Shown: piece after piece, positions 11,989 through 45,581 of the stretch | How positions within the stretch are numbered: the stretch's first letter is position 1 | Layout of the letters: each line of letters begins with the position of its first letter | Origin: a virus | Virus genome (UHGV): UHGV-0468246 | Strand: one strand, 5' to 3' | DNA: 64,000 nucleotides | The notes under the pieces: generated by a model | What the model was told of the DNA's origin: nothing | The model's database searches: none | What the model saw: the letters and a program-made list of their open reading frames with translations, nothing else | Translations under genes and position numbers: made by a program

Positions 11989-12009
11989 AGCGGCATCGCC
12001 CCGCACAGA

Positions 12010-12844: not shown

Positions 12845-12864
12845 CTCATGCCTCCTCTCGGAGG

Positions 12865-13293: not shown

Positions 13294-13314
13294 GCAGACC
13301 ACCGCCCGAAGATG

Positions 13315-13735: not shown

Positions 13736-13756
13736 AAGATCACCGCCTCTCGCTCG

Positions 13757-14167: not shown

Positions 14168-14179
14168 GGGGCACCTCCC

Positions 14180-14595: not shown

Positions 14596-14613
14596 GCCAT
14601 CACCGCCTTTCGG

Positions 14614-15018
14614 TCATGAGATTCTGCGCCAGAAGTACACCGCAACGTACGGCGGCATGTTGTTGTGGGCGGCATTGCCGCCGACGCTGACGAGCCTTCC
14701 CAGATTGCCGCTCGGGGCGTATCCGTACTCTCCCTGCGCGAACGCCCTGTTCCCGAGGTCTCCGACGATGAGCATGTCGGCTGATGGGTTGTGGTTGTGA
14801 GATGGCATCTCCGAGACGGAGAGCTTATGGGCCGCCTCGCCACCGGTCGCCCCTCCGGCGTACGACGAACCTGCGCCGAGCAGGAACCGGTCTTTCCCGT
14901 AAAGGCTCCACGAGGTTCCGGGCCAATAGGACGACGGGTTGACGTTCTCCGTCGAGATGTAGATGCCGTTCGGCTGGACGGGGCAGTAGCAGCCGTGTCC
15001 GGGGACGTTAAGCCGCAT
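14614..15018 (-). CDS. tail collar domain protein, array member I
   Basis: Starts MRLNVPGHGCYCPVQPNG and ends AAHNNMPPYVAVYFWRRIS. GGGGAGG RBS. Confidence 0.65.
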   Translation of the reverse strand: MRLNVPGHGCYCPVQPNGIYISTENVNPSSYWPGTSWSLYGKDRFLLGAGSSYAGGATGGEAAHKLSVSEMPSHNHNPSADMLIVGDLGNRAFAQGEYGYAPSGNLGRLVSVGGNAAHNNMPPYVAVYFWRRIS

Positions 15019-29375: not shown

Positions 29376-30329
29376 TTAAGCTCCATTCAAGTCCATGCGG
29401 ACGACACCGTAGGAGTTGGCGATGATCTCGTTGATGAGTTCGCTGTACACCCAGCCGATGGTGAAGTTCTCGGCCTTGGGGTTGTCCACGCCGTCGAGCT
29501 GCTTCAGAATCGGCATCCAGCCAAGATACTCCGGCTCCGGAACGAGGTAAATCTTGTTCATCGGGCAGATGATCGAGGTCATGATGGAGAAGCGGCCCAT
29601 CTTGGTGATCGGCTTGCCGTCCATCACGTCGTCGAGGAACTTAACGCCCGTGGTGTCGAGCTTCCACTTGTACAGGTCGTTCGCCGTCGCCGGGTTCATG
29701 ATGACGCGGTTGGACTGCAAGCGGTTCTGGATGGCGATCTTCTCGGCATCGTAGAACGCGCCGGGGTTGATCTCGCCGGTGACCGTGGTCACATGCGAGG
29801 TGAGGCCCGCCCAGTCCGGGTTTTCGGAGGTGATCTTGGACACGGCAGCGTCGAGCGAGGAGAACAGGTAGCCGTCCTCCTGCTCCATGATGCGCTGCTC
29901 GGCCTCGCCCTTGGCGTAGTCCACCATGTTGATGGCGAGCTTGTAGATGTCCTCCTCGGCGATCTGGGGGAACGCCGCGATGCGGATGACCTCGTAGCGT
30001 ACGCGGTTGCCCTCGTACTGCGCGATCTTCACTTCGTTGTCGTGCGGTTGCAGCTTGTAGGCCGCGCCGAACTCGGTGGTGATGTCGTAGAACAGGCCAG
30101 CGCCCTGCGGCAGCGGGTCTTCCATCAGAACGGAGCGCACGATGCCCTCGTAGCGGAGACGCATGATGATCGGGCCTACCACGCCCTGCGCGACCTTGGT
30201 GGACGCGAGACGCATGTCGTGGCGGTTGTCCGTCAGAATCTTGTTGAGCGCCGCCTGACGCTTCGCGGGGGACGACGGGTTCGCACCCATCTCCGCGACG
30301 ATCTCGGCGGAAGTCTTAGGCATTGCCAT
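29376..30329 (-). CDS. major capsid protein (putative)
   Basis: 317 aa. Lies after the scaffold and decoration-like genes and is followed by a strong terminator. Confidence 0.5.
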   Translation of the reverse strand: MAMPKTSAEIVAEMGANPSSPAKRQAALNKILTDNRHDMRLASTKVAQGVVGPIIMRLRYEGIVRSVLMEDPLPQGAGLFYDITTEFGAAYKLQPHDNEVKIAQYEGNRVRYEVIRIAAFPQIAEEDIYKLAINMVDYAKGEAEQRIMEQEDGYLFSSLDAAVSKITSENPDWAGLTSHVTTVTGEINPGAFYDAEKIAIQNRLQSNRVIMNPATANDLYKWKLDTTGVKFLDDVMDGKPITKMGRFSIMTSIICPMNKIYLVPEPEYLGWMPILKQLDGVDNPKAENFTIGWVYSELINEIIANSYGVVRMDLNGA

Positions 30330-30353: not shown

Positions 30354-30863
30354 TTAGCGGGCGAACGTGACGATGAGGGTGGAACCCTCCATGCCGAGCA
30401 GTTCGCAGATGGTGTTCTCGGTCTTGGTCTGCGGCGCGGTTTCGAGCGTGAGCAGGCCCTTGGCGTTGGACTTCAGGTAGACGTTCTTGCCAGCCTTCAG
30501 GTTGGCGATCTGCGCCGTCCAACCAGCGCCCGTGTCGTACGCCGGGGGATAGATGGCGAACTGGCTGTCTTCGCCGCCGACCCACACGCCCATCAGGTTG
30601 AGGCCGTTTTCGCGCACCTCGTCGATGTTCATGCCGGGAGCGCAGAAGCTGTCTGCGAGGCCGTAAGGGGCCTTCGTGCCGTCGCACAGGGTCACAACGC
30701 CGTTGCCGAGATAGGACATGACGCAGCCGGGGAGGATGTCTCCGGATGCGGCGGTGAACGTCGGGTCGAGCGTCATGGACTGGTTGGTGGCTTGGGTCTT
30801 CGCGTACAGCGGCTTGATGGTGCGGTGCTGCAAGGGGTTGTTGGCAGGAACCATGAGTGCCAT
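30354..30863 (-). CDS. head decoration-like protein (169 aa), paralog of the N-terminal part of 36402..37313
   Basis: Real start MALMVPANNPLQHRTIKPLYAKTQAT with AAGGAG RBS. The track ORF is N-extended with Arg-rich junk. Confidence 0.4.
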   Translation of the reverse strand: MALMVPANNPLQHRTIKPLYAKTQATNQSMTLDPTFTAASGDILPGCVMSYLGNGVVTLCDGTKAPYGLADSFCAPGMNIDEVRENGLNLMGVWVGGEDSQFAIYPPAYDTGAGWTAQIANLKAGKNVYLKSNAKGLLTLETAPQTKTENTICELLGMEGSTLIVTFAR

Positions 30864-30886: not shown

Positions 30887-31834
30887 TTAGTAGAGCGCAC
30901 CGAGTTCGGTGCGGGTTGCGGATACGGCCTTGCTCGCGGTCTTCGCCGCGACGTGTCGGGCCGGTGCGACACCGGCGACGCGCTGGGCGCTGCCCACGGC
31001 GCGCAGCTTCTCGGTCGCCAGCTTCATGGCCTCGACGGAGTAGCGGTTGGCGTACTCCTCGCACACGGCGGCATCGCGCACCGTCGGGGCGAGGACACCT
31101 GCGGCCTTCTCGACCTTCACGAGGTCGAGCGCGGCGCAGAACGTCGCCTTGGCGGCCTCCACGGACGCGGGCGGCTTAACGCCCTCGCCGTTGTCCTTGG
31201 TGGTGCCGTCGGGGGCGATGGACTTCTCTTCGAGGTCGTCGGAAACGGCGACCTCGGTTGCCGTGTCCTTCTGCGGAAGATCGGGGGCCTCTGCGGTGTC
31301 CTTCACGAGGTCGTCGGAGATTTCGCCGTCGGCGGTCTCCGCCTTCTTGCCGCGAGAGGCCACGCGCGCCCTGCGCGCCAGCTTCTTCTTCGACGCGCTG
31401 CGCTTGACAGCCGCTTCCACGGCATCCTCCACAGCGTCCTCGATGATCTCGGCCAGCTCCTCCTCCGGCAGCGCTGCGGCTTCCGGTATCGCATCGACGA
31501 TGGCCTGCACGGCCTCGTCGGAAACGGCATCGGCAACGTCGTCTGCCACGTCCTCTTCCTCGTCATCCACGATGCGCTCGATCTCCTCGGCGTGCTCGTC
31601 CTGCGCGATCTTGTAGGCGCGGCGCTTCAGCTTGCGGGCGAATCGCTTTGCCTCCTTGTCGTCGTCGGTCACGTCCTTGGTCTCGGTCTCCGTGACTTCC
31701 TTGGTCTCGTCGTAATCCTCTTGGGAAGTCTTGGCCGTGGGGCGAGCGGACTTGGGCATGGCGGATGCGTTCTTGCGCTTGGCAGCGATGGAGGCCAGCA
31801 TAGACCTGCGCTGCTCTGCATTGAGCTTACCCAT
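30887..31834 (-). CDS. scaffolding protein (putative)
   Basis: About 315 aa from MGKLNAEQ. Very acidic, Ala/Glu/Asp/Lys-rich and likely helical. Lies immediately upstream of the decoration and capsid genes. Confidence 0.45.
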   Translation of the reverse strand: MGKLNAEQRRSMLASIAAKRKNASAMPKSARPTAKTSQEDYDETKEVTETETKDVTDDDKEAKRFARKLKRRAYKIAQDEHAEEIERIVDDEEEDVADDVADAVSDEAVQAIVDAIPEAAALPEEELAEIIEDAVEDAVEAAVKRSASKKKLARRARVASRGKKAETADGEISDDLVKDTAEAPDLPQKDTATEVAVSDDLEEKSIAPDGTTKDNGEGVKPPASVEAAKATFCAALDLVKVEKAAGVLAPTVRDAAVCEEYANRYSVEAMKLATEKLRAVGSAQRVAGVAPARHVAAKTASKAVSATRTELGALY

Positions 31835-32275: not shown

Positions 32276-34678
32276 CTATGCACCCAATGCCGCATTGGAG
32301 CCGGTGCGCCTGCCGACCTCCTCGGTTACGGCGCTCTTCGCGCCCTCCAACGTGTCCTCGTCGCCCTCGGCCATCTTCTCGCCGGACGCGCCGCCGCTCG
32401 TCATGTCGATCAGCTCCCAGTGGTACTTTCCGGGCGTGGAGTAGTCGTAATCGACCTCCATCTCGTACGGGTGCTCGAACTTGGCCCACACGCCGTCCTC
32501 CTCTTCCCAGCCGTCGTCGGCGGTCTTCGCGGAGGCCGTGCGGCCCAGAGCGTCGTCGATGGCGGCCTGCGCGCTCGGGAAGTAGCCTTGGCGCGGATAG
32601 CCCTTCACGCCCACGTCTTCGGTGACCCAGTACCAGTTGTAGGTTCCGTCCGCCTCGACTTCGGCGTTCACGATCTTGCCGTCGCCCGTGAAGCGCCACG
32701 GACTGCCGAGAGCGCCGCCGCCCATGGTCTCGAACTTCGTCCAGCCGTCGGGCGCGGGCGTTGAGCGCCCGGTGTCGTGCCCGTCGCTCGCCGCCGTCTT
32801 GGCGGGGAGGCGCTGGGCGTTCTGCGCCAGCCACTCGTCCGCGAGCTTCGCGCAGTACTCCATGGCAGGCTCGATCATGCAGAAGCCGTCCTCCGGGTTG
32901 TCGTACTTCGCCAGCAGCTGGTCGTACGGCATGCTCTCGACCTCGGCGTAGGGCAGGCCGTCGATTGAGACGGTCTTGACGCGGGCGATCTCCAAGCTCG
33001 GCTCGTACGCGCCGTCCAGCGTTCCGTCGTAATAGGCGTAGCAGCCCTTCGCGTCGTAGTAGAGGTTTCCGGGAAGGTTCGTCCAGCCAGCCCACGACAC
33101 GTTGACGGTGGAGCCATCGCTTCCGACGTACTTGTACCAGTAGTCTTCGCCCGCATGCTCCCATCCTCCCATCTGCGCGGCCTTTTCAGCCGTGGTGACG
33201 CGCACGGTCTTGGGAGGCGCTGCGGAAACGACCTCGTTGTACGTCATCTTCTCGAACCGCTCCGCCTGACGCAGGGCGTAGTCCATGTTCGGCATCATGC
33301 CGAACTCGTGCACCTGCCCCTTGTCGGAGATGACGGTGAGCTGCGGCTTGGAACCGATCTGCTGTTGGACGACACCGATGGTAGCCCTCTTGTCCTTCGT
33401 CTGGCCTTCGTAGAAGGCGTAGAACGGCAGCTCCTCGTCATGGTAGCTCACCTCCGGGGCGAGGCCGCCGCTGGCCGTCTTGCGGGAGCCGACGGAAGAC
33501 CTGACGGAAACGTCGATGTCCTTCCCGTCGTTGTACTCCCTATCGAAGGAGACCGTGTATTCGTCCCAAATGGAAAAGTCGTCGAAAGGCGTTTCCTTGC
33601 CGGAGACCATCTGGGATATTTTGCGCGTCATCTCGCCGTCAAGCTCAACGTCGCTCCGCATGTGCACGTTGATGCCGTCAAACACCTGCCCGTAATTGAA
33701 CTCGGACGACACCTTCCTCGATGCCGTGCGGCGCGCGGAGCGCTTGCGCCCTGCGGAGCGAACGGCCCTGTTCTCGGCGCTCTTCTTCTCCATGTCGTCG
33801 TCCTTTCCCTCGGTCTCCCGCTCGACCTCTCCGATGCCTTCGTTGAACTCGTCCTCCTCGGACGGGTCGAGGTCGATGAGCAGCTTGTGAAGCTCTCCGG
33901 CGTGCTCCTTCTCCTCGTCGCGTATGTCCTCCAAGCCCTTGCGCACGGGGTCGCCCTCGGGCAGGAGGTCGATGTAGGCGCTGTACATCAGGATAGCGTC
34001 GTTCTCCGCCTTCATGTTGTCGCGGATGGCGCGCTTCTTCAGCTCCTCCTCCGAAAGCTCCTTGGGGTCAACCGGCATCTGCTGCGCGGTCTTCCCCTCC
34101 TTCCATTCGCCCTCGATGCCGTCGGCTTCGAGCTTCGCCACGACGGCATCGTACAGCTCGCCGCCGAGCGCGTCTTGGACGATCTGCCAGTAGCGGTTGT
34201 CGTGCTCCTCCATGGCGGTGCCGTGGTCGTATCCGGCCAAGTCCCCCGCCACGAGCCAGTCAACGACGGCCTGAACCGTGCGGTCGTCCGGCATGGACGC
34301 GCTCTTGGGCATCCTGCCGCTCCCTGAGACCTCCTGAAGCTCCTCGCCGTACTCTGGGAGGGTTATGGTCGTATCGCCCGTCAGATCGGCTCCTGCGGCC
34401 TCGGAGGCGGCGTTGCGCCCCATGCACAGGGGCAGCTTGCCGCTGCCCTCGATCAGCTTGCAGAACTCGCGGGCCTCGTCCTCGTCAGCGCACACCTTGA
34501 AGCGCGCGGCCTCGTTCGGCCTGTCCTTCTCGAAGACACCCGCCCAAACCGTGTCGCCGGTCTTGTCGATGGAGTAGTTGAACGCCTCGCCGCACGATGT
34601 CAGCACGCGGGGCATCTCCTCCTTCCACCGCAGGGCGGTCTTCGTGCCCTGCTCGATTATTTTATCGGGTGTGCCCAT
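32276..34678 (-). CDS. large multi-domain protein (800 aa) with ferritin/rubrerythrin-like EE..H segment
   Basis: The segment AILMYSAYIDLL...DIRDEEKEHAGELHKLL resembles a diiron-helix motif. Contains the embedded motif variant encoding DKIIE near the N-terminus. Acidic. Confidence 0.45.
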   Translation of the reverse strand: MGTPDKIIEQGTKTALRWKEEMPRVLTSCGEAFNYSIDKTGDTVWAGVFEKDRPNEAARFKVCADEDEAREFCKLIEGSGKLPLCMGRNAASEAAGADLTGDTTITLPEYGEELQEVSGSGRMPKSASMPDDRTVQAVVDWLVAGDLAGYDHGTAMEEHDNRYWQIVQDALGGELYDAVVAKLEADGIEGEWKEGKTAQQMPVDPKELSEEELKKRAIRDNMKAENDAILMYSAYIDLLPEGDPVRKGLEDIRDEEKEHAGELHKLLIDLDPSEEDEFNEGIGEVERETEGKDDDMEKKSAENRAVRSAGRKRSARRTASRKVSSEFNYGQVFDGINVHMRSDVELDGEMTRKISQMVSGKETPFDDFSIWDEYTVSFDREYNDGKDIDVSVRSSVGSRKTASGGLAPEVSYHDEELPFYAFYEGQTKDKRATIGVVQQQIGSKPQLTVISDKGQVHEFGMMPNMDYALRQAERFEKMTYNEVVSAAPPKTVRVTTAEKAAQMGGWEHAGEDYWYKYVGSDGSTVNVSWAGWTNLPGNLYYDAKGCYAYYDGTLDGAYEPSLEIARVKTVSIDGLPYAEVESMPYDQLLAKYDNPEDGFCMIEPAMEYCAKLADEWLAQNAQRLPAKTAASDGHDTGRSTPAPDGWTKFETMGGGALGSPWRFTGDGKIVNAEVEADGTYNWYWVTEDVGVKGYPRQGYFPSAQAAIDDALGRTASAKTADDGWEEEDGVWAKFEHPYEMEVDYDYSTPGKYHWELIDMTSGGASGEKMAEGDEDTLEGAKSAVTEEVGRRTGSNAALGA

Positions 34679-34735
34679 CGCACTTTTCCTTCCAACGTCC
34701 GAGGGAGGGCGCTCGCCCTCCCTTTGATTTCCGAT

Positions 34736-36391
34736 CTAGCGCACATGCTCCCATTCGGGGTCGTAGGCGAACGGGATGTCGTACCACACGTCGCCGTCGA
34801 TCTCGTCTACGAACGTGGTGACTTGGTTCTTGTACTCATAGCCGTCGATCAGCGTCTCCGTCTCCGGGGTCTTGCGCAGGTACAGGTCGGAGTTCCAGTG
34901 GTCGATATCGCTGTCCGGGATGTTCACGGTCTGCTCGTACAGGCTCTGGGCCTTCTTCACGCTCGCGGTCATGGCTGCGGCCTTCCTCTTGGGGTTCTTC
35001 CTGCCGCCCATCTTACCACAAGTCTTAACTTTTGTCTTAACTTTTCCCTCAACTTTTTCTTTTACACTTTCGGCGGCCTTGATGTTCCTCTCGGCCAGCG
35101 CCACCAGCATGCGGTCGTGGATGTCGCACGCGAGCTTCGAGCGCGATGCCACGCGGAAGGCGAAGCCGTTTTCGATGGTGTACCCGTCGTTGATAACGAT
35201 GTCGCGGCCGAAGCCCTCGTAGTCGAAGTACATCTCCTTCTCGTCGTCGCTGATGCCGTCGAAGCCAAGCTCATCGACGATGCGGTACCCCAAGTCGCGC
35301 TCGTCGTACACGTCGCTCCAATAGTCAACGTCGTCGATGTGCTCGGCGACGTATTCAAGGCTTTCGTAGTCGAGCAGCGCGTCGAGCAGATCGTCGTCGA
35401 GGTCTGCGTCCTCTATGGCCTCCACCCACTCGTTCACGCTGTATATGTCGTCGTACTCGCCGACGCTGCTGCCAAGCCCGTCGGTGTCGGCGATCATTAC
35501 CTCTTCGTAGAACTCGCCGTCGGGGCCGGTCTGCGCGCGCTCTATCGCCTCGTCTATCTCGCTGTCGCTCGCGGGGAGGGACAGCCAGTCGCCGTTGGTC
35601 GGGTTGGACACAGCGCCTATGAAGATCGCAACGTCGCCGCCGAACGCGACCTTGCGCGCCGCCCAAGCCTTGTAGCGCGCCTCCTTGGTCTTCAGGCGCG
35701 GCTTGCGGTTGCCAACGTGCTTGGCGGACTTCACGGCCTCCGCCTTGTACTCCGCGTAGGCCTTCTTCTCCGTCAGCTTCGCGCAAGCGATCAGGCCGAC
35801 GGTGCAGCCCATGCCAGCGAGGTGGTGGCGCACGTCGTCGTCGATCTTGCGGGCCATATGGCGCTCGGCCATGCGGGATGCCACCCATTCCGCCTTGGCG
35901 ATCTCCCCTGCGGGCACGCCGTCGGGGTCTCCGTCCATGAGGTCGTCAGCCGCGTCGGTAAGCTCGTCGATGTCCTGCGCGACCCTGAACGCGGCGCTCT
36001 CCTTCTCGTGCGCCTTCAGGTGCTCTTCCAAAGCGTCGTCGGCATCGTTCTTGGCATCCTCGATGCTGTCGGAATGCCCGCTGTCCACGGTGCGGTCGTC
36101 GGTGTCCAGCACGTCCCAGCGGTAGCGCTTCTCGCCGCCGTCGTCCCACTTGACGGTCGCCTGATAGCCGCCGTCGTGCTTGCGCCACGTGGTGTCCTTC
36201 TCGTCCGGGTTCCCCTCGTTGTCTGCCTTCCATTCAGCGGCCATCTTGCGGCCTCCTTCCATGCGCTTCAGGCGCTTCAGCTCGTCTCGCTGGTGGTCTG
36301 TCTCGTCGTAGTCGTAAGGCAGCGCGAAGTCCGTCACGCAGTCGCCGTCGCCCTCGCGAGCCTTGCGGCTCATACCCTTAACAAGCTCCAT
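34736..36391 (-). CDS. large acidic protein with ArdA-like antirestriction segment
   Basis: About 551 aa from MELVKG with AAGGAG RBS. The segment MYFDYEGFGRDIVINDGYTIENGFAF closely resembles the conserved ArdA block (YIDYQAYGRDL...HGIFE of Tn916 ArdA, as I recall it). Confidence 0.45.
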   Translation of the reverse strand: MELVKGMSRKAREGDGDCVTDFALPYDYDETDHQRDELKRLKRMEGGRKMAAEWKADNEGNPDEKDTTWRKHDGGYQATVKWDDGGEKRYRWDVLDTDDRTVDSGHSDSIEDAKNDADDALEEHLKAHEKESAAFRVAQDIDELTDAADDLMDGDPDGVPAGEIAKAEWVASRMAERHMARKIDDDVRHHLAGMGCTVGLIACAKLTEKKAYAEYKAEAVKSAKHVGNRKPRLKTKEARYKAWAARKVAFGGDVAIFIGAVSNPTNGDWLSLPASDSEIDEAIERAQTGPDGEFYEEVMIADTDGLGSSVGEYDDIYSVNEWVEAIEDADLDDDLLDALLDYESLEYVAEHIDDVDYWSDVYDERDLGYRIVDELGFDGISDDEKEMYFDYEGFGRDIVINDGYTIENGFAFRVASRSKLACDIHDRMLVALAERNIKAAESVKEKVEGKVKTKVKTCGKMGGRKNPKRKAAAMTASVKKAQSLYEQTVNIPDSDIDHWNSDLYLRKTPETETLIDGYEYKNQVTTFVDEIDGDVWYDIPFAYDPEWEHVR

Positions 36392-36401
36392 CTTTCTCTC
36401 C

Positions 36402-37313
36402 TTACTCGCCGAAGACGCAGGCGGTAAAATCGAACGTGTATTCCGTGCCGTCCGTCTTGCTCTCGGCATCCTCGGCGCTCGCGTACAGCGTCGCCGTGAA
36501 CTTCTTCACATCCTTCTGAATGGCGGCGACGAGAATGATGGCTCCCGGCCCGTCGCCCGTCTGGCCGAACACAAGCGTCTTCTCGCCGCTGCCGAGCGTC
36601 TGGCGGACGAACGCGGAGCCGTCAGCCGCCTTCATCTCGAACGCGGCGTAGTAGCCCGTTCTGTCCTCCTCTGCGGCGGAGAACTCCGTCCAGTCGGGAA
36701 CGTGGTTGACGGTTCCACCGAAGACGACGTTCGTGCCTTCGACTCTCGCGGTGAGGCCGCTCGTCAGCTCGCCTAGGTTCTTACCGGCGAAGTTCGTTCC
36801 GGCGAAGTCCGTCTTCCCTATCGTCAGCGCCGCTGGCTGCGGCGGCTCCGCGACGAGGGCTTCCGGCGCTTCTGAAACGGTTATCTTCGCCTGACCGACC
36901 GACATCAGCATGCACACCGGGTTCCCGTCGCCGACCGTCAAGCGACCGTTGGCATCCGATTCGAGCAGCACGCGGCCTCCCGACTTCAACGTCGCCTCCG
37001 CCGCCTCCCAGTCAGCATCCTTGTCGATGACGGAGCGCGACACGTCCGCCATCGCCCCGCCTCCGAAGACGAGAACGCCAGCGCTGGGAACCTCCCAGAC
37101 ATTGTGCGTCCTGTACGTCGAGAACAGCCCCAAGGGGCGCTCCGCCCCGGTTGACGGCCTCACCCCGTCAGGCCCCATGCAGGCGACCATGCCCGGCATG
37201 ATGTCGTGCCTCGAAGGGTCAACGGGCCAATCTTGGAACGTCGCCTGCGTCTTCGTGAACAATGGTTTCAGGGTTCGATGCTCCTGCGTTGCGAAATTTG
37301 ACACTATAGCCAT
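36402..37313 (-). CDS. head decoration-like protein, long paralog (303 aa)
   Basis: The N-terminus MAIVSNFATQEHRTLKPLFTKTQATFQ parallels that of 30354..30863. Confidence 0.4.
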   Translation of the reverse strand: MAIVSNFATQEHRTLKPLFTKTQATFQDWPVDPSRHDIMPGMVACMGPDGVRPSTGAERPLGLFSTYRTHNVWEVPSAGVLVFGGGAMADVSRSVIDKDADWEAAEATLKSGGRVLLESDANGRLTVGDGNPVCMLMSVGQAKITVSEAPEALVAEPPQPAALTIGKTDFAGTNFAGKNLGELTSGLTARVEGTNVVFGGTVNHVPDWTEFSAAEEDRTGYYAAFEMKAADGSAFVRQTLGSGEKTLVFGQTGDGPGAIILVAAIQKDVKKFTATLYASAEDAESKTDGTEYTFDFTACVFGE

Positions 37314-40300
37314 CTGCTTTCCTTTCCGATAACTCCGCCGCGCATCAATTCGTCAAGCGATGCGGAGTAAGAGGCGATCTTACCTCCGCTCGCAAGATCG
37401 TAGTCTATGCCCTCTGCGTACCCGGCATCGGCGAGCGCCGCGAGCACGGTGCCCTGATCGTCCGGAACGTCGAACAGGCGGGCCGCGACGCGGGCATCGT
37501 CGGTGTCCTCCGCGTACTCCTCCTCGGCATCTTCGGTCACCTCCGCGTCAGGCTCCTCCGCGTCGTCCAAGTCCTTGCGCAGCTCCTTGTTCTCCTGCGC
37601 CTCCTCCGTGTCGATGTCGCCGAAGCCCTCGGCGTACTCGACGTACTCGCACACGTCGCAGTAGATGCCGTCGAAGTCTGGGCTTCCGCATATCGGGCAC
37701 ACGCGGTCGGAGTTCTGCATGTCCACCTCTTCGGGGATGCGCAGCTTGTTCACCATGTTGTCGGCCAGCTTGTAGTGACCGGCGATCTCTTGGAGGGCAT
37801 CGGCGTAGAACTCCTCGTCGGCATCGGCGGCCTCCTCGACGGCGCTCCACACCTCTGCGGCAAGCTCGTCGTAGCTGTCGAAGGACAGGCCGAGGCTGTC
37901 GTACTCCTCGATGAAGTCGCTGGCGAAGCCGCTTGCGTCGTCTGCGGAGCCTTCCTTGCCCTCGCCGAACGGCTCGATGCCGAACCTCCTGCACGCGGCG
38001 TTCACCTTGTCGATGACGGCCTGCCTGTCATCGGACGGTATCTCGACCTTGTTCCCGCGATAGCCCTTGCCGAGCGCGGCCTTCGCCGCAGCGGCGTGGT
38101 CTTTGTCCGAGATGTCCAGCTTCCAATCGCTCGGATTGTCGGTCGGAGTGTACGCATAGTCCGACTTGCTCTTCTCCGCCGCCGTCACCCGAAGCAGCGT
38201 CCGCGCCTCGTCGTATACCTCATCGTTCATGTCGGTGTGCCTCCATTGCATCGTCCCGAACATATGGTCGGCAAGCGTCCCGTCTGCTCCGCTGCCCACG
38301 TAGCTCTCCACCACGTCGTTCAATTTCTTGTCGAAGATGTAGTCGTAGTTCTCCGTGTTCTCGAAGTCAGACCACCTCGCATAGCCGTACAGCTCGCCGC
38401 CGTACATCTGCCTGTTGATGCCGTCGAGGTACCAGTTGCACCCGCCAACGCCGTAGCCCCAATGGTCGGAGCCGCGAATAACGCCGTCAGGGAAGTACCA
38501 GTACTCGGAGCCTGATTCGCTCGTGTAGTCGGGAGCGCCCTGCGGCCTGTCCTCCACCTCCGCGAAGTTCGCCTCGGTCTCTATGTAGAAGTTGTCGGGG
38601 CCGAACTCCCTTTCCTTCGCGGCGACCTTGGCGGTCTTCGCCTCGGCCTCCAACGCCTGCACGGTGGCCGTCGGGTCTGCCGGGTCGTACACCCAGCTCT
38701 CCTCGAAGAACGCTATGCCGTTGCATATCTCGAACGCGAGAACGCCGTCGAACTCGCGCCCCTTCTGCTTGATGTGGTTGCAGAACTGGGCGGGCTGCTC
38801 TGCCACGTTCCCGCACACCGAGCACGTCGTGGTCTCGCAGTTATGAACGGCATACCCCTCGGCAATATAACTATGATCTTCCTCAACTTCAAAGTTATAC
38901 ACCATCCCCGTGTACGGAAGAACCCTTATGCGGTCTATGCGCCTCCAAGTGCCTTGTTCGTCAACATAGCACATCGCCATTTTCTTCTGTTCTTCGGAGC
39001 GATCTCCATAAGAGACGTAACGTGTGTGTTTGGCAATATCGGATATTCTCTCGGAAGACCTAGCGATTGGTTTGGACATCTTGATGCCAAGTTGAGTGCA
39101 TATTGAAAATATCTGATATGCAAGGTCTTTTGAAACGGTGGAATATGCGACCCTGTGATCATCAATGTAATGTCCGTCTCCATTAAGATACGCTTCGACA
39201 AGATCGCCAAGACACTCATCATCCCAGCGCATTGCTTCGTCGCTTATTCTTTTCCCATGGGAATACTTCCCACCATGCTCTAACATCATATTTGCAAGTT
39301 CCGGTGAATTGCACCTTATCGTAGCAGCTCCACGCTTGATATATGGCCCAACCGCCTTATATCCGAGTTCAGAGCAAAGCGCCATGACTTCATCGTGATA
39401 ATCAGTCTCGCTATCGCAAAACGTCCACTCGACAAACGCTGGTGCGCCAACACCAATGTTCAGCTTTTTGTCATATCCGAAGTTTCCCTCTGCGAGATAG
39501 TATCCAAGGAGCCTTGCGAACACGCGATTCCCGCCACGCGATGTGCGAACGGGCTTCGGGTCGAGAACGTAATCTCCAACCTCCAAGTCACTCGCAATGA
39601 CCCATCCTTCAAAATCGGGCTGGTATCCATGGCCGTCAACGCCGTTCTTCGCGGCCTCGCGCACATGCGCCGCAAGGCTTCTATGGCTCTTGAACGAGCG
39701 CCCGCAAATGCAAGAATGCTCTGCATTGTCGCCATCATGAGCTATCCTGCTTTCACGTATGGTTCGCATCGCGTCGTTCTTCATTCGACGCACCCAGACG
39801 GGATGCTCGTCGGTAAGAACCATCGGACGTTTGCTTCCATAAGATCGCACCTCATACACGATTCCGGAATGCAAGCTCGCCATCGTGTCGGCAACCCTTC
39901 GCACGTTCCCAAGATGCGTTATAACCTCATCGCCGACCGCAACGTCTTCGATGTTTTTGACGGTGCCGTTTGACATAGTTATATGCGTTCCGGGAACAAA
40001 GCAGTTGAGGCCCATGGAAACGGTGTCGATGTCGCCGCTGCGGATGAGCGCGCACAGCCTCGGGAACGTAACCTCGTCCATCTCCATCAGAATCTCTATC
40101 CAACGGTCTTCCGGGTCTTCGTCGTGGTACACCGCGTCGATGATGTAGCCGCGCGCCCTGTCGAGGTTCGTGTTCGAGTGGTTCACGTACACCGGCTTGC
40201 CGACGAACGTGCGGTACGCGGTCTTCAGCTCCTCGTGCGGCAGCATGTCGAAGTTCAGGTTCGGAACGTCTGCGGTGCATGCGCGGACGGAGACGTACAG

Positions 40301-40417
40301 GAACCCGTCGCCGCGATCATCGTACTCGAACGAGCCGAGGGCCTTGCGCGCGGCGACGCGCCCGGTCGTCCCGAAGCTCGTTCCGATTATGGAGCAGTTG
40401 GAGAACTTAACGAACAT
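37304..40417 (-). CDS. prohead protease-like protein with long acidic C-terminal region, interrupted by a LAGLIDADG intein
   Basis: The N-extein PVYVNHSNTNLDRARGYIIDA resembles the HK97-family protease His block. The intein runs from CFVPGTHITMSNG to VHN, followed by CETT, and contains LLGYYLAEGNF. Confidence 0.5.
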   Translation of the reverse strand: MFVKFSNCSIIGTSFGTTGRVAARKALGSFEYDDRGDGFLYVSVRACTADVPNLNFDMLPHEELKTAYRTFVGKPVYVNHSNTNLDRARGYIIDAVYHDEDPEDRWIEILMEMDEVTFPRLCALIRSGDIDTVSMGLNCFVPGTHITMSNGTVKNIEDVAVGDEVITHLGNVRRVADTMASLHSGIVYEVRSYGSKRPMVLTDEHPVWVRRMKNDAMRTIRESRIAHDGDNAEHSCICGRSFKSHRSLAAHVREAAKNGVDGHGYQPDFEGWVIASDLEVGDYVLDPKPVRTSRGGNRVFARLLGYYLAEGNFGYDKKLNIGVGAPAFVEWTFCDSETDYHDEVMALCSELGYKAVGPYIKRGAATIRCNSPELANMMLEHGGKYSHGKRISDEAMRWDDECLGDLVEAYLNGDGHYIDDHRVAYSTVSKDLAYQIFSICTQLGIKMSKPIARSSERISDIAKHTRYVSYGDRSEEQKKMAMCYVDEQGTWRRIDRIRVLPYTGMVYNFEVEEDHSYIAEGYAVHNCETTTCSVCGNVAEQPAQFCNHIKQKGREFDGVLAFEICNGIAFFEESWVYDPADPTATVQALEAEAKTAKVAAKEREFGPDNFYIETEANFAEVEDRPQGAPDYTSESGSEYWYFPDGVIRGSDHWGYGVGGCNWYLDGINRQMYGGELYGYARWSDFENTENYDYIFDKKLNDVVESYVGSGADGTLADHMFGTMQWRHTDMNDEVYDEARTLLRVTAAEKSKSDYAYTPTDNPSDWKLDISDKDHAAAAKAALGKGYRGNKVEIPSDDRQAVIDKVNAACRRFGIEPFGEGKEGSADDASGFASDFIEEYDSLGLSFDSYDELAAEVWSAVEEAADADEEFYADALQEIAGHYKLADNMVNKLRIPEEVDMQNSDRVCPICGSPDFDGIYCDVCEYVEYAEGFGDIDTEEAQENKELRKDLDDAEEPDAEVTEDAEEEYAEDTDDARVAARLFDVPDDQGTVLAALADAGYAEGIDYDLASGGKIASYSASLDELMRGGVIGKESRWL

Positions 40418-41003
40418 GCTTGCCCTTCTTCCTCGCCTTATACGCCATGTAGCAGTTCACGATCAAAGCGGCCTCCATGAGCGCCACCAGAGCCATTTTG
40501 ACGACGAGAAGCGCGTTCGGGCCCGGCAGGCCTATGAACGCGCTGTCGGCCAGCGTCACGACCGCGAGAACGCCCATTATGAGCGCTATGAGCATCTTGT
40601 CGTTCGCATAGTAGCGGATTGCCATGACGGCGAAGCCCGCGAAGACGACGAACGCCGACGGCATGACGACCGAGTGCGGCGCTCGCGTGAAGAAGCCGCC
40701 GATGACCGACGACATGAAGACGAACACGACGAGCAGCAGCATGTCTATCGAACGCCAGCTCTTGTCGGTCGCCCCCGCGAACATGAAGACACCCGCCATG
40801 CCGTAGGCTGCGAGCGAGAAGAAGCGGGCGAACATGTCGTGCTCGCCCACCGATGCGATGATCGAGGCGGAGAGCGCCATCGAGGCGAGCGCTGCGGCCA
40901 TGTAGGGCATGCTCTTGTCCCCGCACGTCCTGACGCTCAACGCGGACGCGATGACGAATATCGGAAAAGTCGCTCCGAAGATCGAGAAGACAGCGGCGTT
41001 CAT
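40407..41003 (-). CDS. integral membrane protein (about 5 TM segments)
   Basis: Real start MNAAVF. Hydrophobic throughout. ATGA overlap with the upstream gene. Confidence 0.4.
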   Translation of the reverse strand: MNAAVFSIFGATFPIFVIASALSVRTCGDKSMPYMAAALASMALSASIIASVGEHDMFARFFSLAAYGMAGVFMFAGATDKSWRSIDMLLLVVFVFMSSVIGGFFTRAPHSVVMPSAFVVFAGFAVMAIRYYANDKMLIALIMGVLAVVTLADSAFIGLPGPNALLVVKMALVALMEAALIVNCYMAYKARKKGKHVR

Positions 41004-41368
41004 CGCTTTTCGCCTCCCTTCGAGGAGCTTGCTTCGTCCTTCGAGCCTCCGAACTTCGATTCGAGCGAGTTTATGATCTGCTCCAATATCATGGGGGCTA
41101 TGATGGCCGAAGAGAAGGCCGTCCAGATCGACTGATCGACTATCACGCCGACCGCGCCGCCCATTATCAGCGACGCTACGAAGCCGAGATGGACGTACAC
41201 GCCTCCGTCGTCCTTGCGCTCGATGCGCAGCGGAAGCTCCAAGCAGCCGTCGTTCACGCAGATGTCGCGGACGAACGCACCGCAAGCACCGGCGAGGAAC
41301 AGGAACAAAGCCTGCTCGAAGCTGGTTATCTCGCTCATGTGCACGATCGATGCGAAAAGTTCGTCCAC
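41000..41368 (-). CDS. small membrane protein (122 aa)
   Basis: Two or three hydrophobic segments and an acidic C-terminal tail. Confidence 0.4.
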   Translation of the reverse strand: MDELFASIVHMSEITSFEQALFLFLAGACGAFVRDICVNDGCLELPLRIERKDDGGVYVHLGFVASLIMGGAVGVIVDQSIWTAFSSAIIAPMILEQIINSLESKFGGSKDEASSSKGGEKR

Positions 41369-41383: not shown

Positions 41384-42367
41384 TTAGTAAAGGGAGGCAT
41401 CTTCTCCCTTGTAGCGGTCTCTGTTGCGAGCCAACTGGCCGGTGCTCTCCTCTTGGAGTTCCTTCTGCTCCTGCTGGCTGAATATCCTTGTGGCGCTTTT
41501 ATTGTATCCGCTGTTGCTTTTCGCCGCCACTGGCAACGCGACGCGCCGAGCGCCCGCAGACACGCACATGACACCGCCGTACTCGTGGACGCGCATCGCC
41601 TCGCGGATGCCGCGCTGCATCGTCTCGGGGGCCGATTCGTCGAGGAACGCGACGGCCTCGCGCCTCTCGCCCTCGTTGGTCGAGTACAGGCGCGCGACCA
41701 TGGCGTTGAACACCTCGTCCTCGAAGCAGTCGGGGCACAGTTCGTGCAGCCCATCGCGCTCGCCGTATTTCCCGCAGTGCGAGCAGAAGCCCGTCTCGTT
41801 GTAAACCATGCTTGCCGTCCTATCTCCGAAGAACTCTTTCCTCGCCCTCGCGTTGCTCACCATGAGCGTCGCGAGCGCGTGGCTGCACATCCTGCCGCCC
41901 CAGCCGCTCCTGCTGCTGTGGCCCGGAGCGCCGTCGTAGTAGCTGCCCCACTTGCAATCGCACAGGTAGCCCTGAACCCATCCGCCGTAGTTAGGCGACT
42001 TGTTCCATCCCTTGCGCGCGAGTATCACGCCGTAGGGGCCTCCGCGATAGACGGGGAAGCGCCCCGCCACCTGCGCGCTCGTGACGACGGCATCGACCTC
42101 CTCGCTGTCGTCGCGGGTGATGACAACGCCGCCCGTGGCGGCTATGGCCTCGGCCTTCGCCTTCACGTCCGCCCATGCCGCGCGCTTCTCCAACATCGAC
42201 GTTTTCCGCATGTCGTCTGCCACCGCGAGCGGGCAGTGCAGCAGGCGCTCGTCGGAGCGTTCGTAGGAGCATGCGCCAAGCTCGACGCTCGCCGTCCTCT
42301 CCGACACGTCAACCCTCTGCACGCACCGCCCGCAGTCCCAGAACATGCAGTCGCATCCGCTACTCAT
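41384..42367 (-). CDS. SWIM zinc-finger protein
   Basis: Real start MSSGCDC. The segment CDCKWGSYYDGAPGHSSRSGWGGRMCSHALA fits the CxCx(n)CxH SWIM pattern. Confidence 0.45.
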   Translation of the reverse strand: MSSGCDCMFWDCGRCVQRVDVSERTASVELGACSYERSDERLLHCPLAVADDMRKTSMLEKRAAWADVKAKAEAIAATGGVVITRDDSEEVDAVVTSAQVAGRFPVYRGGPYGVILARKGWNKSPNYGGWVQGYLCDCKWGSYYDGAPGHSSRSGWGGRMCSHALATLMVSNARARKEFFGDRTASMVYNETGFCSHCGKYGERDGLHELCPDCFEDEVFNAMVARLYSTNEGERREAVAFLDESAPETMQRGIREAMRVHEYGGVMCVSAGARRVALPVAAKSNSGYNKSATRIFSQQEQKELQEESTGQLARNRDRYKGEDASLY

Positions 42368-45300
42368 CGCCGCCGTCCTCCGCGACCAACGGCACGCCCT
42401 GCTCCACCAGAGATGCCGTTCGCTTGCTGCGGACGCTTGCGCGGTGGTTGGCGACCACGGAGCGCTTCGTGCTCCCAACGTCCTTCATGGCGCTTCTGGC
42501 GGCCTCGTGCGGGATGTCTCCGCCCTTCGCCGCGAACGTGCCCGGAGCGTCCATGTCCTCGCGCCTCTCGTCCGACACGTCGGGTCTTGCGCCGTCTCCG
42601 GGGGCGTACTCCTCCTCGTCCACCACGTCGGTCACCGCTTCGAGCTGCGATACCGCCTCCTCTTCGGGCGACTTCCCGAACGGGCCGTCCTTGCCGTCGT
42701 CCTCCTTCGGGGCTATCTTCTTCAGAAGCTCCTGCTCTTCCAACGGCGCTATGCCGTCCTTCATGAACTTCACCGTGTCGGGAGGAACGGGAACGCCCTT
42801 CTCGACGCACGCGCGGAAGATCGCGGCGTGCTCCTCCGCGCGCTGCACGGCATCGTGTATGGCATCCTGCGATGCCTGCTCCGCCGTCGCACGGTAGTCG
42901 ATGTCGGTTCCCATGAAGAACGCCTGACGGGCGATTGGCACGCCCTGCTTCTGCAACTGCATGAGGAAGTCGCGCGTCTTCTCCGTCGTGTTGAAGTTGA
43001 TCGTCTCCATGCGCAGCTCCGGATAGAGCAGCTTGGGAACCTCCTTGATGACGTAGCCGCCCTCTCCGTCGTTGACCGATTCGTCCCACACCTCGCGCCA
43101 CTCGGTCTTGTCGATCTTGACCCCGCCTATGATGTCGTAGTCGTAGATGCCGTTCGCCTCGGCGACGAACGCCGCGCGGCGGTTGTACAGCTCGCACAGG
43201 CACTTCTGGTAGCTGCGGAGCATCTGGCTCGCCAGCTCGAACTCCATGGCCGACGTTGCGTACGGGCCGCTCGCAGGCTTCAAGATCGACGATGAGAGGC
43301 CCCACGCCATGAACAGGCGGTCGTCGTACATGTCGATGTCGTTCTTGAAGTTCGCCATCTTGTCGCCGCGTATGACCTCCTGCACGTTCACAAACTGGTT
43401 TGTGACCAAGGCTCGGAAGTCGGACGAAAGCGCCTCGTCGAGACGCGTTCGGAAGGTAGCTATGGCGTTCGGAGACGGGATGTAGGGGCTTCCGTCGGCA
43501 AGGTTGCCTCCGAGCGAGAACAAGAGGAGCGGCGCGTACATGCGGTCTGCCGTCGCGAGCATGGCCGACTGAAGGCGCTCCTCCAACCGCAGGGTGTTCC
43601 AAGCGCGCAGGGCGACCGGCGTTCCGTGAAGGTCTCGCACGCTGTCCTTGTTCGCGAGGTGGACGCATCGGTCTGGCGATATGAGGATGTCCTTTCCGGT
43701 CTTCACCAGCTCGGCGAACTCCGGGTTCTCCTCCTCGAAGATGCGCCCTGCAACGTCCATGCTGTTGACGATGCGCTTCATGTCCTCGTCGGGAACGAAC
43801 TTCAAGATGTTCTCCGATGAGAACGGCACCCTTATTATCTCCATCTGGCGCGGGTCTAAAAGCTCCTCGCCCGTCCATATGCCCAAGCTGTCGTCCCACA
43901 CGCCGTTGGCGAACACCTCTCCGTACTGCCAGTACTCGCGGCCAACGTCGATCAGGAAGTTCTCGTAGTCCAAGTCCTCGAAGAAAATCTGCTCGAAGAA
44001 GTCTTTCACGTCCTTGTTCTTGCATTCGAGGTGCGCGCCTGCGGTGGGGTACCTCGCGTACACCTCCAAGCAGTTGTGAGACGCGAAGCCGTCGGCTAGA
44101 TAGCTATGGTCTTCATCGACCTCCAAGTTGTACACGGCCCCCTCGAACCTCTCGACGGACACCGACTTCACCGCGAAGTGCATGTAGTCGCCGCTTAGGA
44201 AGCCGAGGGAGACGCGCGAGTACGGGCGCTTCTCGCGCTCGTGCCGTATACCATTGTCGTCGCGAAAAGAGCATGCCGATGCCCCGCTGTACCTCACAGC
44301 GCCGAGCGACGTTTGCACGATGGACGCTTTCTCATTGTCCGCGACGAACCTCTCGAACATGCAGTTCCGAGGCCATTTCACGCACACCTCGTAACCGCAC
44401 CTGATCGAAATAGCGGCAAGGCCGTTCACAAGATCGCGGGAGACGCTGTTCATCACGATCTCGTTCTTCCCGTTGCAGCCGTCTCCACGGAAGAACCCGA
44501 CAAGCAGCTGACGCTGCTTCTCGATTGGAAGCTCCTGAACCCATAGCGGTATGCGCTTCGAGTGAGCGCCGCACAAAAACTCATCGCGCAGCCATTGGGC
44601 GAGCGGCGCGGAGTTCACATCGACGACCCACATGTTCCTGCGCCCGTCTCTGCGAGCCTTCGCCTCGATGCCGAGGCATTCGCGGCATATCCTCTTAACG
44701 TCATCAACGTACTCGACCTCATGCGCGCCGAAGCAGATGCTCGTCCTGTTGCCCGATGCCGCTCCGTCAGAGAGATGGTATCCCACGAACCTGAAGAAGT
44801 CTGCATTCGCCTTGATCTCCAACCGCATCGAACGCTTCGACTTCGTTGGGGGGACGACCTTGCCCGTCTTCGTCTTGTACGAACCCTGAACCCATTCGAC
44901 ATCGCGCTTCGCGACGATACGCTCGACATCCTCGACGCTTTTGCCGACCGGCATCACAAGATAGTCTCCGATGCGAACCTCGCTCGCCGAAACCCACTTG
45001 TACTCGCCCTCCGGCAGCGCTCCGTCAAGGTACGTCGTGCCGCCCGTGCGTCTGAACACGTACAGGTTGTGGTCTTCGGTGCAGCGCAGCTCCGAATCGC
45101 TCTGATGCACCTTGAACGAATACATGTCCCCGTCATACCCGAACGCCATTGTTTCGAGAACCTTGCGGTAGCGCCCAGCATGCGTCTTTACCTCGTCTCC
45201 GACCGCCACGTCCTCGATGGGCACGAGAGACCCTTCGACATCGACGAGCGTCCCGGCGGGGTGGCACGCGCGCATGACGGGGTTGGTCTTCATGATGACC

Positions 45301-45581
45301 TCAACGCCGTCGAGGAGGTTCTTCCTCGCCTCCTCGTTGTGGTCGATGTCCATGTAGTTGTTGTAGCCGTAGCCTCTAAGGCCGATGCGCTTCTGGCGCG
45401 CCGGGTCGAATATGCGCGGTATGGCGAACTCCGCCCCCGGCTCCCCGAACGCCGCCGTGTGCTCGAACTTCGAGCTTGCCGGTGCCGCCTGCTCAACGAG
45501 CACGCGAAGATGGGACGCGTCGTGCGCCTGCACCTGACGGGTGGGGAGGTTGACTATCGCCTTCTTGCCTTTAGATTCCAT
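42360..45581 (-). CDS. portal protein candidate interrupted by a LAGLIDADG intein
   Basis: 1073 aa. The intein runs from CHPAGTLVDVEGS to SHN, followed by CLEV, and contains LLVGFFRGDGCNG and FVGYHLSDGA. The extein is about 630 aa and lies downstream of the terminase. Confidence 0.45.
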   Translation of the reverse strand: MESKGKKAIVNLPTRQVQAHDASHLRVLVEQAAPASSKFEHTAAFGEPGAEFAIPRIFDPARQKRIGLRGYGYNNYMDIDHNEEARKNLLDGVEVIMKTNPVMRACHPAGTLVDVEGSLVPIEDVAVGDEVKTHAGRYRKVLETMAFGYDGDMYSFKVHQSDSELRCTEDHNLYVFRRTGGTTYLDGALPEGEYKWVSASEVRIGDYLVMPVGKSVEDVERIVAKRDVEWVQGSYKTKTGKVVPPTKSKRSMRLEIKANADFFRFVGYHLSDGAASGNRTSICFGAHEVEYVDDVKRICRECLGIEAKARRDGRRNMWVVDVNSAPLAQWLRDEFLCGAHSKRIPLWVQELPIEKQRQLLVGFFRGDGCNGKNEIVMNSVSRDLVNGLAAISIRCGYEVCVKWPRNCMFERFVADNEKASIVQTSLGAVRYSGASACSFRDDNGIRHEREKRPYSRVSLGFLSGDYMHFAVKSVSVERFEGAVYNLEVDEDHSYLADGFASHNCLEVYARYPTAGAHLECKNKDVKDFFEQIFFEDLDYENFLIDVGREYWQYGEVFANGVWDDSLGIWTGEELLDPRQMEIIRVPFSSENILKFVPDEDMKRIVNSMDVAGRIFEEENPEFAELVKTGKDILISPDRCVHLANKDSVRDLHGTPVALRAWNTLRLEERLQSAMLATADRMYAPLLLFSLGGNLADGSPYIPSPNAIATFRTRLDEALSSDFRALVTNQFVNVQEVIRGDKMANFKNDIDMYDDRLFMAWGLSSSILKPASGPYATSAMEFELASQMLRSYQKCLCELYNRRAAFVAEANGIYDYDIIGGVKIDKTEWREVWDESVNDGEGGYVIKEVPKLLYPELRMETINFNTTEKTRDFLMQLQKQGVPIARQAFFMGTDIDYRATAEQASQDAIHDAVQRAEEHAAIFRACVEKGVPVPPDTVKFMKDGIAPLEEQELLKKIAPKEDDGKDGPFGKSPEEEAVSQLEAVTDVVDEEEYAPGDGARPDVSDERREDMDAPGTFAAKGGDIPHEAARSAMKDVGSTKRSVVANHRASVRSKRTASLVEQGVPLVAEDGGDE

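Follow-up and report, generated by a model that had tools for sequence, protein, structure and literature searches.

The viral DNA UHGV-0468246 was analysed over a stretch of 64,000 nucleotides, hereafter called the window, with attention to two adjacent late genes on its minus strand that encode proteins of 551 and 800 amino acids (aa). Both genes lie in the head-morphogenesis cluster of a phage resembling Eggerthella phage LE2-3 (MW679026.1, 112 kb, host Eggerthella lenta DSM 2243). The 20 kb around them showed 98.4% nucleotide identity to LE2-3, and the major capsid protein (MCP) shared 99.7% identity with its LE2-3 counterpart and ~38% with the MCPs of cluster C mycobacteriophages. A haloarchaeal virus had first been suspected from the acidic proteome, the GC content of 63% and the inteins, and was dropped in view of the 98% nucleotide match to LE2-3. 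The 551-aa protein carries an ArdA antirestriction domain and the 800-aa protein an encapsulated-ferritin (EncFtn) domain; both are flanked by short basic linkers, and we propose that both are carried in the phage head.

The 551-aa protein contains an ArdA domain

The start codon of the 551-aa protein, the ATG at 36391, stands 5 nt after the Shine-Dalgarno sequence AAGGAGAG and 10 nt after the stop of the cement-like gene upstream. A 577-aa mechanical open reading frame (ORF) from 36469 overlaps that upstream gene and was rejected. A sequence-only reading of this DNA had called both ORFs with the boundaries given in Table 1, including the start at 36391, and had recognised an ArdA-like segment in the 551-aa protein; both calls held, and the two ORFs are on the minus strand. 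The peptide quoted there, MYFDYEGFGRDIVINDGYTIENGFAF, corresponds to residues 387–412 (window 35156–35233), and the whole protein matched the Pfam ArdA profile PF07275 with 80.8 bits (cut-off 27, E = 2.2e-22) over profile positions 15–154 of 155. It also matched the “anti-restriction protein” family PHROG 2059 (E = 1.7e-12) and the Tn916 ORF18 ArdA structure 2W82 in the PDB (E = 4.3e-7), with query residues 267–410 aligned to chain residues 21–159. The D+E content of the 551-aa protein was 23.0%, the top value in the window, and this excess is due to the ArdA domain, whose residues 250–415 have a net charge of −42 and a pI of 4.05, figures that describe total charge and not its spatial pattern. 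The acidity to which the sequence-only reading had drawn attention was thus real, but the phage proteome is acidic overall, with most proteins between pI 4.1 and 5.7, and therefore acidity by itself is not special for this protein.

The ArdA domain was present in all 26 homologues found, whose lengths range from 391 to 911 aa because their N- and C-terminal modules differ, and it has 44 invariant columns among the lineage homologues. The LE2-3 protein LE23_73, already labelled “antirestriction protein” in GenBank, is 86% identical to the 551-aa protein and has an 80-aa additional N-terminal module. The short N-terminal leader, M(E/K)LV(K/E)x(M/I)S(R/K)xA, remained constant in the homologues regardless of the module that follows it (alignment A1), and the ArdA protein of the L002 lineage begins with MKLNRKVS, which is the leader of the ferritin-family protein P0152. 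Every ArdA feature that could be tested was found, and the 551-aa protein thus contains a complete ArdA domain. A pattern scan of IMG/VR with the ArdA domain returned this lineage only, and tblastn of the full-length protein against 50,697 cultured-phage records returned LE2-3 only.

Pfam gave no match to any separated module of the two proteins except ArdA and EncFtn. A Foldseek search of the PDB with the AlphaFold2 (AF2) model of the whole 551-aa protein found nothing significant, the sole hint being a small module similar to H. volcanii HVO_2922 (prob 0.87). Several small modules in the 32531–32800 region, at 36050–36230 and in the homologues P0149–P0163 are W-rich, with a beta-meander-plus-helix pattern ...GxYxWxL...G...(F/Y)xSxE(D/E)A..., and resemble YegP/UPF0339 (DUF1508), a likeness for which the HVO_2922 match is the one Foldseek hit and Pfam gives none. 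The 724-aa metagenomic homologue P0001 has a partial tandem duplication of the linker and the first ~100 ArdA residues, which could be real or an assembly artefact.

The 800-aa protein carries an EncFtn module

The 800-aa protein (D+E 19.4%, pI 4.5) has an E...ExxH helix pair at residues 204–296, and its LE2-3 homologue LE23_74 is already labelled “ferritin-like superfamily protein” in GenBank. The Pfam Rubrerythrin profile PF02915 (cut-off 22.8) scored 22.0 within the whole protein and 26.0 with the module alone. When phmmer was run against the PDB, the best matches were M. xanthus EncC (7S8T, E = 1.7e-8), P. furiosus EncFtn (5N5E, E = 2.2e-6) and PfV, the P. furiosus EncFtn-capsid fusion (2E0Z, E = 6.5e-6). 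The ferroxidase residues, a Glu, a Tyr seven positions later and the ExxH pair (A2 E24, Y31, E55 and H58), were invariant in the phage and cellular sequences, and the alignment to EncC paired AENDAILMY/EEKEH with AELDAINLY/EEREH. We take these four positions to be equivalent to Glu32, Tyr39, Glu62 and His65 at the metal site of the R. rubrum enzyme. The AF2 model of the module gave a two-helix core with pLDDT of 82–96, and all of the top 50 Foldseek matches in the PDB were EncFtn structures (50/50, prob 1.00; target-normalised TM 0.67–0.85, rmsd 1.7–2.1 Å over ~75 residues). Both this model and that of the 551-aa protein rest on shallow alignments, and the third homologue search for the EncFtn model gave 8 proteins.

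These results together indicate that the helix pair is, as judged from profiles and the modelled fold, an EncFtn-type domain with intact metal ligands, and this predicted ferroxidase module is the sole identifiable domain of the 800-aa protein. The ferritin-like helix pair of the earlier reading was thereby borne out and its nature narrowed, while no signature of the anti-defence role that it had suggested was seen in the 800-aa protein. Pfam and PHROG searches found no encapsulin gene in the window, the neighbours of the EncFtn gene being phage head genes, and the 800-aa protein has no C-terminal cargo-loading peptide. We therefore speak of an EncFtn-type domain that occurs in a new setting and do not class the locus as an encapsulin system. 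Near-identical variants of 800 and 876 aa, which differ by one 76-aa module, were found on many ~117-kb metagenomic contigs. Phages of this type are frequent in public metagenomes: when the 800-aa protein is clustered at 90% identity, a single cluster can occur on up to 109 contigs (~117–120 kb).

EncFtn relatives accompany encapsulins in cells and occur in viral genomes

A comparison of the 800-aa protein with 1.84 billion representative proteins showed that its wide homology is confined to residues ~200–300, which matched ~150 proteins mostly of 90–140 aa, together with some two dozen long modular proteins. In cellular genomes, relatives of the EncFtn domain were found at at least 494 loci, mostly of anaerobes; the phage domain is 38–51% identical to cellular EncFtn. 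The next gene downstream encoded an encapsulin shell (PF04454, E = 1e-66 to 1e-82) at 9/9 of the cellular loci tested, one of which is from Slackia, in the family of the phage's host. The phage domain thus has true encapsulin cargo proteins among its homologues.

At least 102 viral contigs of IMG/VR encode EncFtn relatives, and the best 80 of these fall into 33 sequence clusters. Their genomic context was surveyed at a handful of loci and yields examples, not statistics. Two contigs, L054 and L042, encode portal-EncFtn fusions. In L019 a 94-aa EncFtn gene lies between the portal gene and a MuF-like head-morphogenesis gene, in L021 the EncFtn gene is directly upstream of the portal gene, and in L012, a 364-kb jumbo contig, it adjoins the terminase and protease genes. 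The EncFtn genes of L009 and L013 adjoin helicase or methylase genes and not head genes. When 126 genes neighbouring viral EncFtn genes were annotated with PHROG, they included portal, sheath, capsid and terminase genes but also helicases, a mixed result that yields no clean enrichment statistic. As with the ArdA protein, tblastn of the EncFtn domain against the cultured-phage records found LE2-3 only. In a rough neighbour-joining tree without support values, most viral EncFtn sequences grouped apart from the encapsulin-linked ones, which speaks, if only weakly, against recent acquisition of the domain from an encapsulin operon of a host.

The fusion protein of L054 (5980–8637, 885 aa) joins a PF06381 portal domain to a half-ferritin of EncFtn type and a type IB topoisomerase (PF01028, E = 2e-26), and looks like a portal-anchored multi-enzyme protein.

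Basic linkers separate the modules

The 551-aa and 800-aa proteins are built of small modules joined by basic (K/R)(T/V)A(S/Q) linkers. The motif was noticed by eye before it was tested, and an unbiased count of all k-mers was added. The head proteins contain 9 copies of [RK][TV]AS where 0.44 were expected, a number reached in 0/5000 shuffles, and the other 11.8 kaa (thousand residues) of the window contain 2 copies. In the unbiased count, KTA and TAS led the over-represented 3-mers and RTAS the 4-mers, with 5 copies of RTAS against 0.07 expected (p = 1e-8). The linkers flank both ArdA and EncFtn and delimit fragments of 166 aa and 121 aa, which are the natural sizes of ArdA and EncFtn proteins.

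The motif K(T/V)AQ stands before the EncFtn domain in many long homologues, P0149 reads SRKTA-LRWKEE at the KTA-L junction with an additional module before it, and L005 has RRTAS at the position of RVA-S. Proteins of the L002 lineage stop ~25 residues past RVA-S, just after the last conserved block, and are without the C-terminal modules of the window protein. Among near-identical phages we observed two module insertions and one order swap, all exactly at linkers. The protease has an (R/K)(T/V)A site ~22 residues from its N-terminus in four lineages, with varying adjoining residues, and the grammar of leader and linkers also extends to the portal, protease and scaffold. We infer that the linkers are prohead-protease cleavage sites which would free ArdA and EncFtn inside the capsid.

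Gene order of the head region

In the order of transcription, the head region comprises the genes for the portal, a CxC...CxH protein, a small protein, the protease, a cement-like paralogue, the 551-aa protein, the 800-aa protein, an 82-aa protein, a scaffold-like protein, the cement protein and the MCP (Table 1); nearly all called genes of the window are on the minus strand. PHROG and Pfam matches of the neighbours confirmed the proposed site of both genes between the protease and the scaffold and capsid genes, with one extra, cement-like gene in between. Relatives whose MCPs are 47–88% identical keep the order protease, (cement-like), ArdA, large protein, scaffold, cement and MCP. Both the EncFtn and ArdA modules were kept in relatives despite gene rearrangement, and in L005 EncFtn is part of a 354-aa protein adjoining the protease. 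Compared with LE2-3, the two genes are the least conserved of the head region (86% and ~91% with indels, against 99.7% for the MCP), as expected of accessory or conflict genes. They are separated by a 57-nt spacer with a GC-rich hairpin, GGGAGGGCG-AG-CGCCCTCCC, which has no T-run 3′ of it and may act in transcription attenuation or mRNA stabilisation.

Table 1. Features of the head region and of the two proteins, in window coordinates; hyphens in linker names mark the junction.
Feature	Position	Strand	Remarks
Portal with intein	42360-45581	-	
CxC...CxH protein	41384-42367		head module
Small gene	41000-41368		one of two annotated here in LE2-3
Prohead protease, with inserted intein and ~430-aa acidic C-terminal extension	37304..40417	-	N-terminus matches PHROG 18299 “head maturation protease” (E = 1.5e-19), also PHROG 2774
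Cement-like paralogue, Phage_cement_3 N-terminal domain plus extension	36402..37313	-	Pfam PF23968, E = 4.4e-9
551-aa ArdA gene	34736..36391	-	LE23_73 homologue
11-residue N-terminal leader MELVKGMSRKA	36359..36391	-	ends basic-x-Ala; candidate capsid-targeting propeptide
Linker KVA-F	35642..35653	-	N-terminal edge of ArdA; K247 and A249 invariant in A1
ArdA DNA-mimic domain (predicted)	35147..35644	-	residues 250-415, 166 aa, 18.6 kDa; between KVA-F and RVA-S
Linker RVA-S	35144..35155	-	C-terminal edge of ArdA; R413 and A415 invariant in A1
GC-rich hairpin, perfect 9 bp	34703..34722	-	intergenic spacer; read directly
800-aa gene	32276..34678	-	LE23_74 homologue
Linker KTA-L	34631..34642	-	end of 15-residue N-terminal leader of 800-aa protein
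Linker KTA-Q	34082..34093	-	directly upstream of EncFtn module
EncFtn (half-ferritin) module (predicted)	33722..34084	-	residues 199-319, 121 aa; between KTA-Q and RTA-S; conserved core 33791-34069
Linker RTA-S	33719..33730	-	downstream of EncFtn module
Linker KTA-S	33470..33481	-	76-aa module inserted just upstream in LE2-3 and 876-aa variants
Linker KTA-A	32789..32800	-	last two modules swapped here in P0147
Linker RTA-S	32531..32542	-	between last two small W-rich modules
Scaffold-like gene	30887-31834	-	role inferred from position and composition
Cement protein	30354-30863	-	Pfam Phage_cement_3, E = 9.8e-33
Major capsid protein	29376-30329	-	PHROG 2522 “major head protein”, E = 8.5e-61

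Other observations on the neighbouring genes

Pfam and PDB searches with the spliced protease returned zinc-ribbon noise only, and its family was not fixed beyond PHROG. The LE2-3 homologue of the protease, LE23_71 (L001 7711–10824), is called “tRNA synthetase” in GenBank, and the sole basis that we found for this label is a zinc-ribbon resemblance to methionyl-tRNA synthetase at the level of chance (E = 0.3). The protease and portal genes both carry Hint-type inteins whose LAGLIDADG-like similarity is weak and below threshold. In the protease, the intein starts four residues after the probable catalytic motif (VSMGLN-C); L002 and L004 are without these inteins, and L005 has one in the protease.

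The SWIM zinc finger that had been proposed for the protein encoded at 41384–42367 was not recovered: no Pfam profile matched this protein, PF04434 giving nothing even at E ≤ 10, and what is present is a CxCx21CxH pattern seen by eye. In this CxC...CxH protein, which also occurs in L002, L004 and L005, three sites resembling the linkers are conserved, namely KTS/KTA near residue 55, FFGDRTAS near 183 and KSATRIF near the C-terminus; the protein is weakly similar to part of mycobacteriophage I3 gp102 (1266 aa, E = 3.7e-4). It may be another processed internal head protein.

The head operon holds two Phage_cement_3 paralogues, the upstream one (303 aa) having a ~150-aa C-terminal extension that matches a function-unknown PHROG family. 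Tandem small paralogous genes (~130–165 aa) with alike N-termini, such as MRLNVKGKGYYCPHPVG and MRLNVPGHGCYCPVQPNG, lie at 11097–15018, between the tail-sheath-side and distal genes.

Discussion

The GenBank labels of both genes are already known, and the reading of their products as head cargo appears to be new. We propose, with a probability of about 0.55, that both proteins are packaged as internal proteins and cut by the prohead protease, that ArdA is then ejected and that EncFtn is active in the capsid. Both would enter the prohead as core or internal proteins, possibly by means of their short conserved N-terminal leaders, and the prohead protease would cleave after the Ala of every linker. 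The mature head would then contain free ArdA of ~18.6 kDa, free EncFtn of ~14 kDa and several function-unknown modules of 8–25 kDa. ArdA would exit with the DNA and block type I restriction-modification (R-M) enzymes ahead of any phage gene expression. EncFtn would dimerise and oligomerise in the capsid and oxidise Fe(II), as inside encapsulins, and thus might shield the packaged genome of this phage of a strict anaerobe from iron- or oxygen-driven damage or, alternatively, deliver its activity to the cell.

For ArdA, the argument is one of logic: a restriction inhibitor that is made only late is useful only if it is carried to the next host. Because ArdA and its position in the head region are conserved in relatives with 47–88% MCP identity, a packaged role is the most economical reading for this domain. 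The ArdA dimer has about the width and charge of B-DNA, as seen in the Tn916 ArdA structure, so its passage down the tail is plausible. For EncFtn, the portal-EncFtn fusions of other lineages are the best evidence that such a domain works inside capsids.

Several observations weigh against this proposal. The well-studied DNA mimics T7 Ocr and plasmid ArdA are made early after entry and are not packaged, and a protein with a net charge of −42 is electrostatically awkward in a DNA-filled head. The linkers might serve for nothing more than flexible spacing, or simply mark junctions of recombination. The strict motif is rare in the L002 lineage, whose linkers are of the kind KKVA-Y and KKTA-T, a candidate MCP maturation site (RLA-S) is not conserved, and the motif is not enriched in gp102 and gp103 of mycobacteriophage I3, the nearest cultured relative outside the group. 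The dedicated Pfam profile EncFtn-like (PF22277) did not match the window module; several viral homologues scored below its cut-off and the cellular L123 protein above it. For the whole 551-aa protein AF2 gave a poor model, with a mean pLDDT of 54.8 and values below 60 in the ArdA region. Our literature search, which covered open-access papers and bioRxiv, found no virion proteomics for this phage or its relatives, and we infer packaging, cleavage and ejection.

The strongest alternative holds that both products are late accessory (“moron”) proteins which stay in the cytoplasm, where ArdA would act against host type I R-M or BREX systems during replication and EncFtn would serve the infected anaerobe as an auxiliary metabolic enzyme against iron and oxidative stress, the head operon being only an insertion site. 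Precedents exist for both halves of this account: stand-alone ArdA of ~19 kDa is encoded in the replication or early region elsewhere, for example as gp70 of Paenibacillus phage API480 (PMC6937236), and the Dps and Mn-catalase of gut phages have been described as oxidative-stress functions outside the virion (PMC8008677). The viral EncFtn genes next to helicase or methylase genes also fit it. However, an inhibitor that is made only late cannot shield the incoming genome, the head-operon position has been kept across deep divergence, the portal-EncFtn fusions place the domain inside the capsid, and the shared grammar of leader and linkers reaches the portal, protease and scaffold. We therefore regard the cytoplasmic account as possible but unlikely.

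A further alternative is that the modules are scaffold or core components, serving as assembly filler or oligomerisation elements that are degraded and expelled at maturation, with the two folds reused structurally and without an anti-restriction or ferroxidase role. The acidic proteins of the T4 prohead core are likewise cut up by the protease, and the two proteins studied here are acidic, have helix-rich stretches and adjoin the scaffold gene; their module order is interchangeable, and an EncFtn D5 decamer could serve as an assembly nucleus. A purely structural use does not sit well with the four metal-site residues of EncFtn, invariant across phage and cellular sequences, or with the near-full profile coverage, 44 invariant positions and extreme negative charge that ArdA has kept. 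These features indicate selection for biochemical functions and make the structural account improbable.

That the locus belongs to a packaged antirestriction system of the P1 DarA/DarB type, with which the sequence-only reading had compared it, or to the canonical class of polyvalent proteins is very doubtful, since neither the whole proteins nor their modules matched DarA-N, the DarB helicase or methylase, MuF, ArdC-N or a zincin-like peptidase in Pfam and PHROG (nor SNF2, other methylases and further signature domains of polyvalent proteins), and PDB sequence searches matched only ArdA and EncFtn, although the multi-domain architecture and head-module context do recall polyvalent proteins and ArdA is known in those of Firmicutes conjugative elements, usually with ArdC-N (PMC5512222).

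Compared with known ArdA proteins, the window domain is homologous to PF07275 and Tn916 ORF18 over nearly the whole fold and has the same 166-aa length and extreme negative charge. Unlike the stand-alone ArdA of early or leading regions, it is one module of a 551-aa protein whose gene belongs to a phage head operon, and it is flanked by linkers. Polyvalent ArdA proteins likewise have ArdA fused to other modules and are thought to be delivered with the invading DNA; they are found mainly in Firmicutes conjugative elements, are associated with ArdC-N and have a zincin peptidase in cis (PMC5512222). The window proteins share with them a modular architecture in the context of a head operon but are without those domains, and their processing would occur in trans through the prohead protease.

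The packaging of ArdA and EncFtn that we favour would follow a logic known from other phages. The core proteins of T4 and the inner-body proteins of phiKZ are internal proteins that are encoded near the protease or scaffold and share a short recurrent cleavage-type motif. The motif found here, (K/R)(T/V)A followed by S/Q, is nearer to the Ala-Ser site of herpesvirus assemblin than to the x-x-E of T4 and phiKZ, and its cleavage is putative. The proposed logic is that of T4 IPI* and P1 DarA/DarB, ready-made inhibitors that are kept in the head, processed by its protease and delivered into the cell along with the DNA. The leader, short and conserved at the N-terminus, is reminiscent of the capsid-targeting sequence of T4 (PMC12373910). 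There is no sequence relationship to IPI* or DarA/DarB, and the mechanism here would be DNA mimicry against type I enzymes, not inhibition of GmrSD or coating of the DNA.

With the cargo of Family 1 encapsulins (R. rubrum 5DA5, P. furiosus 5N5E/2E0Z and M. xanthus EncB/EncC), the window module shares identical metal ligands and the same predicted two-helix fold. In encapsulins and phages alike, EncFtn is associated with an HK97-fold shell, and the EncFtn-shell fusion of P. furiosus parallels the portal-EncFtn fusions of phages. The difference lies in the shell, which here is the capsid of an infectious tailed phage, and in EncFtn being one bead of an 800-aa polyprotein. Ferritin-superfamily genes reported earlier in phages encode Dps and Mn-catalase and lie outside head modules (PMC8008677, PMC6669764). 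In a 2024 review of EncFtn, phages appear only where the HK97 fold of encapsulins is discussed. In the main encapsulin census, phage genomes counted as false positives and were taken out (PMC8346489), and a 2025 preprint offers only speculation on procapsids carrying cargo-like enzymes (10.1101/2025.06.18.659913). In the literature searched, no publication on LE2-3 was found, and the Eggerthella phage papers on PhiKL11 (PMC13131767) and PMBT5 contained nothing relevant.

If ArdA is packaged, the DNA mimic would be a restriction inhibitor that is injected pre-made, of which we found no description in the same literature. E. lenta genomes commonly hold at least two R-M systems (10.64898/2026.03.31.715625), and a packaged ArdA would be relevant to the host range of phages against this medically interesting gut bacterium. 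The EncFtn finding is of broader consequence. Encapsulins are believed to have arisen from HK97-type phage capsids, yet their cargo has so far been treated as a cellular addition. We raise, as a tentative idea with the odds against it, that tailed phages of anaerobes package an EncFtn ferroxidase in their heads, here together with pre-made ArdA, so that the virion doubles as an encapsulin-like iron-detoxifying compartment, and that the Family 1 shell and its Flp cargo were domesticated together from phage head modules or have been repeatedly exchanged with them. That a cargo-type ferritin is encoded within actual phage head operons, in some cases as a portal fusion, makes enzymatic cargo in phage capsids directly testable in the cultured phage LE2-3.

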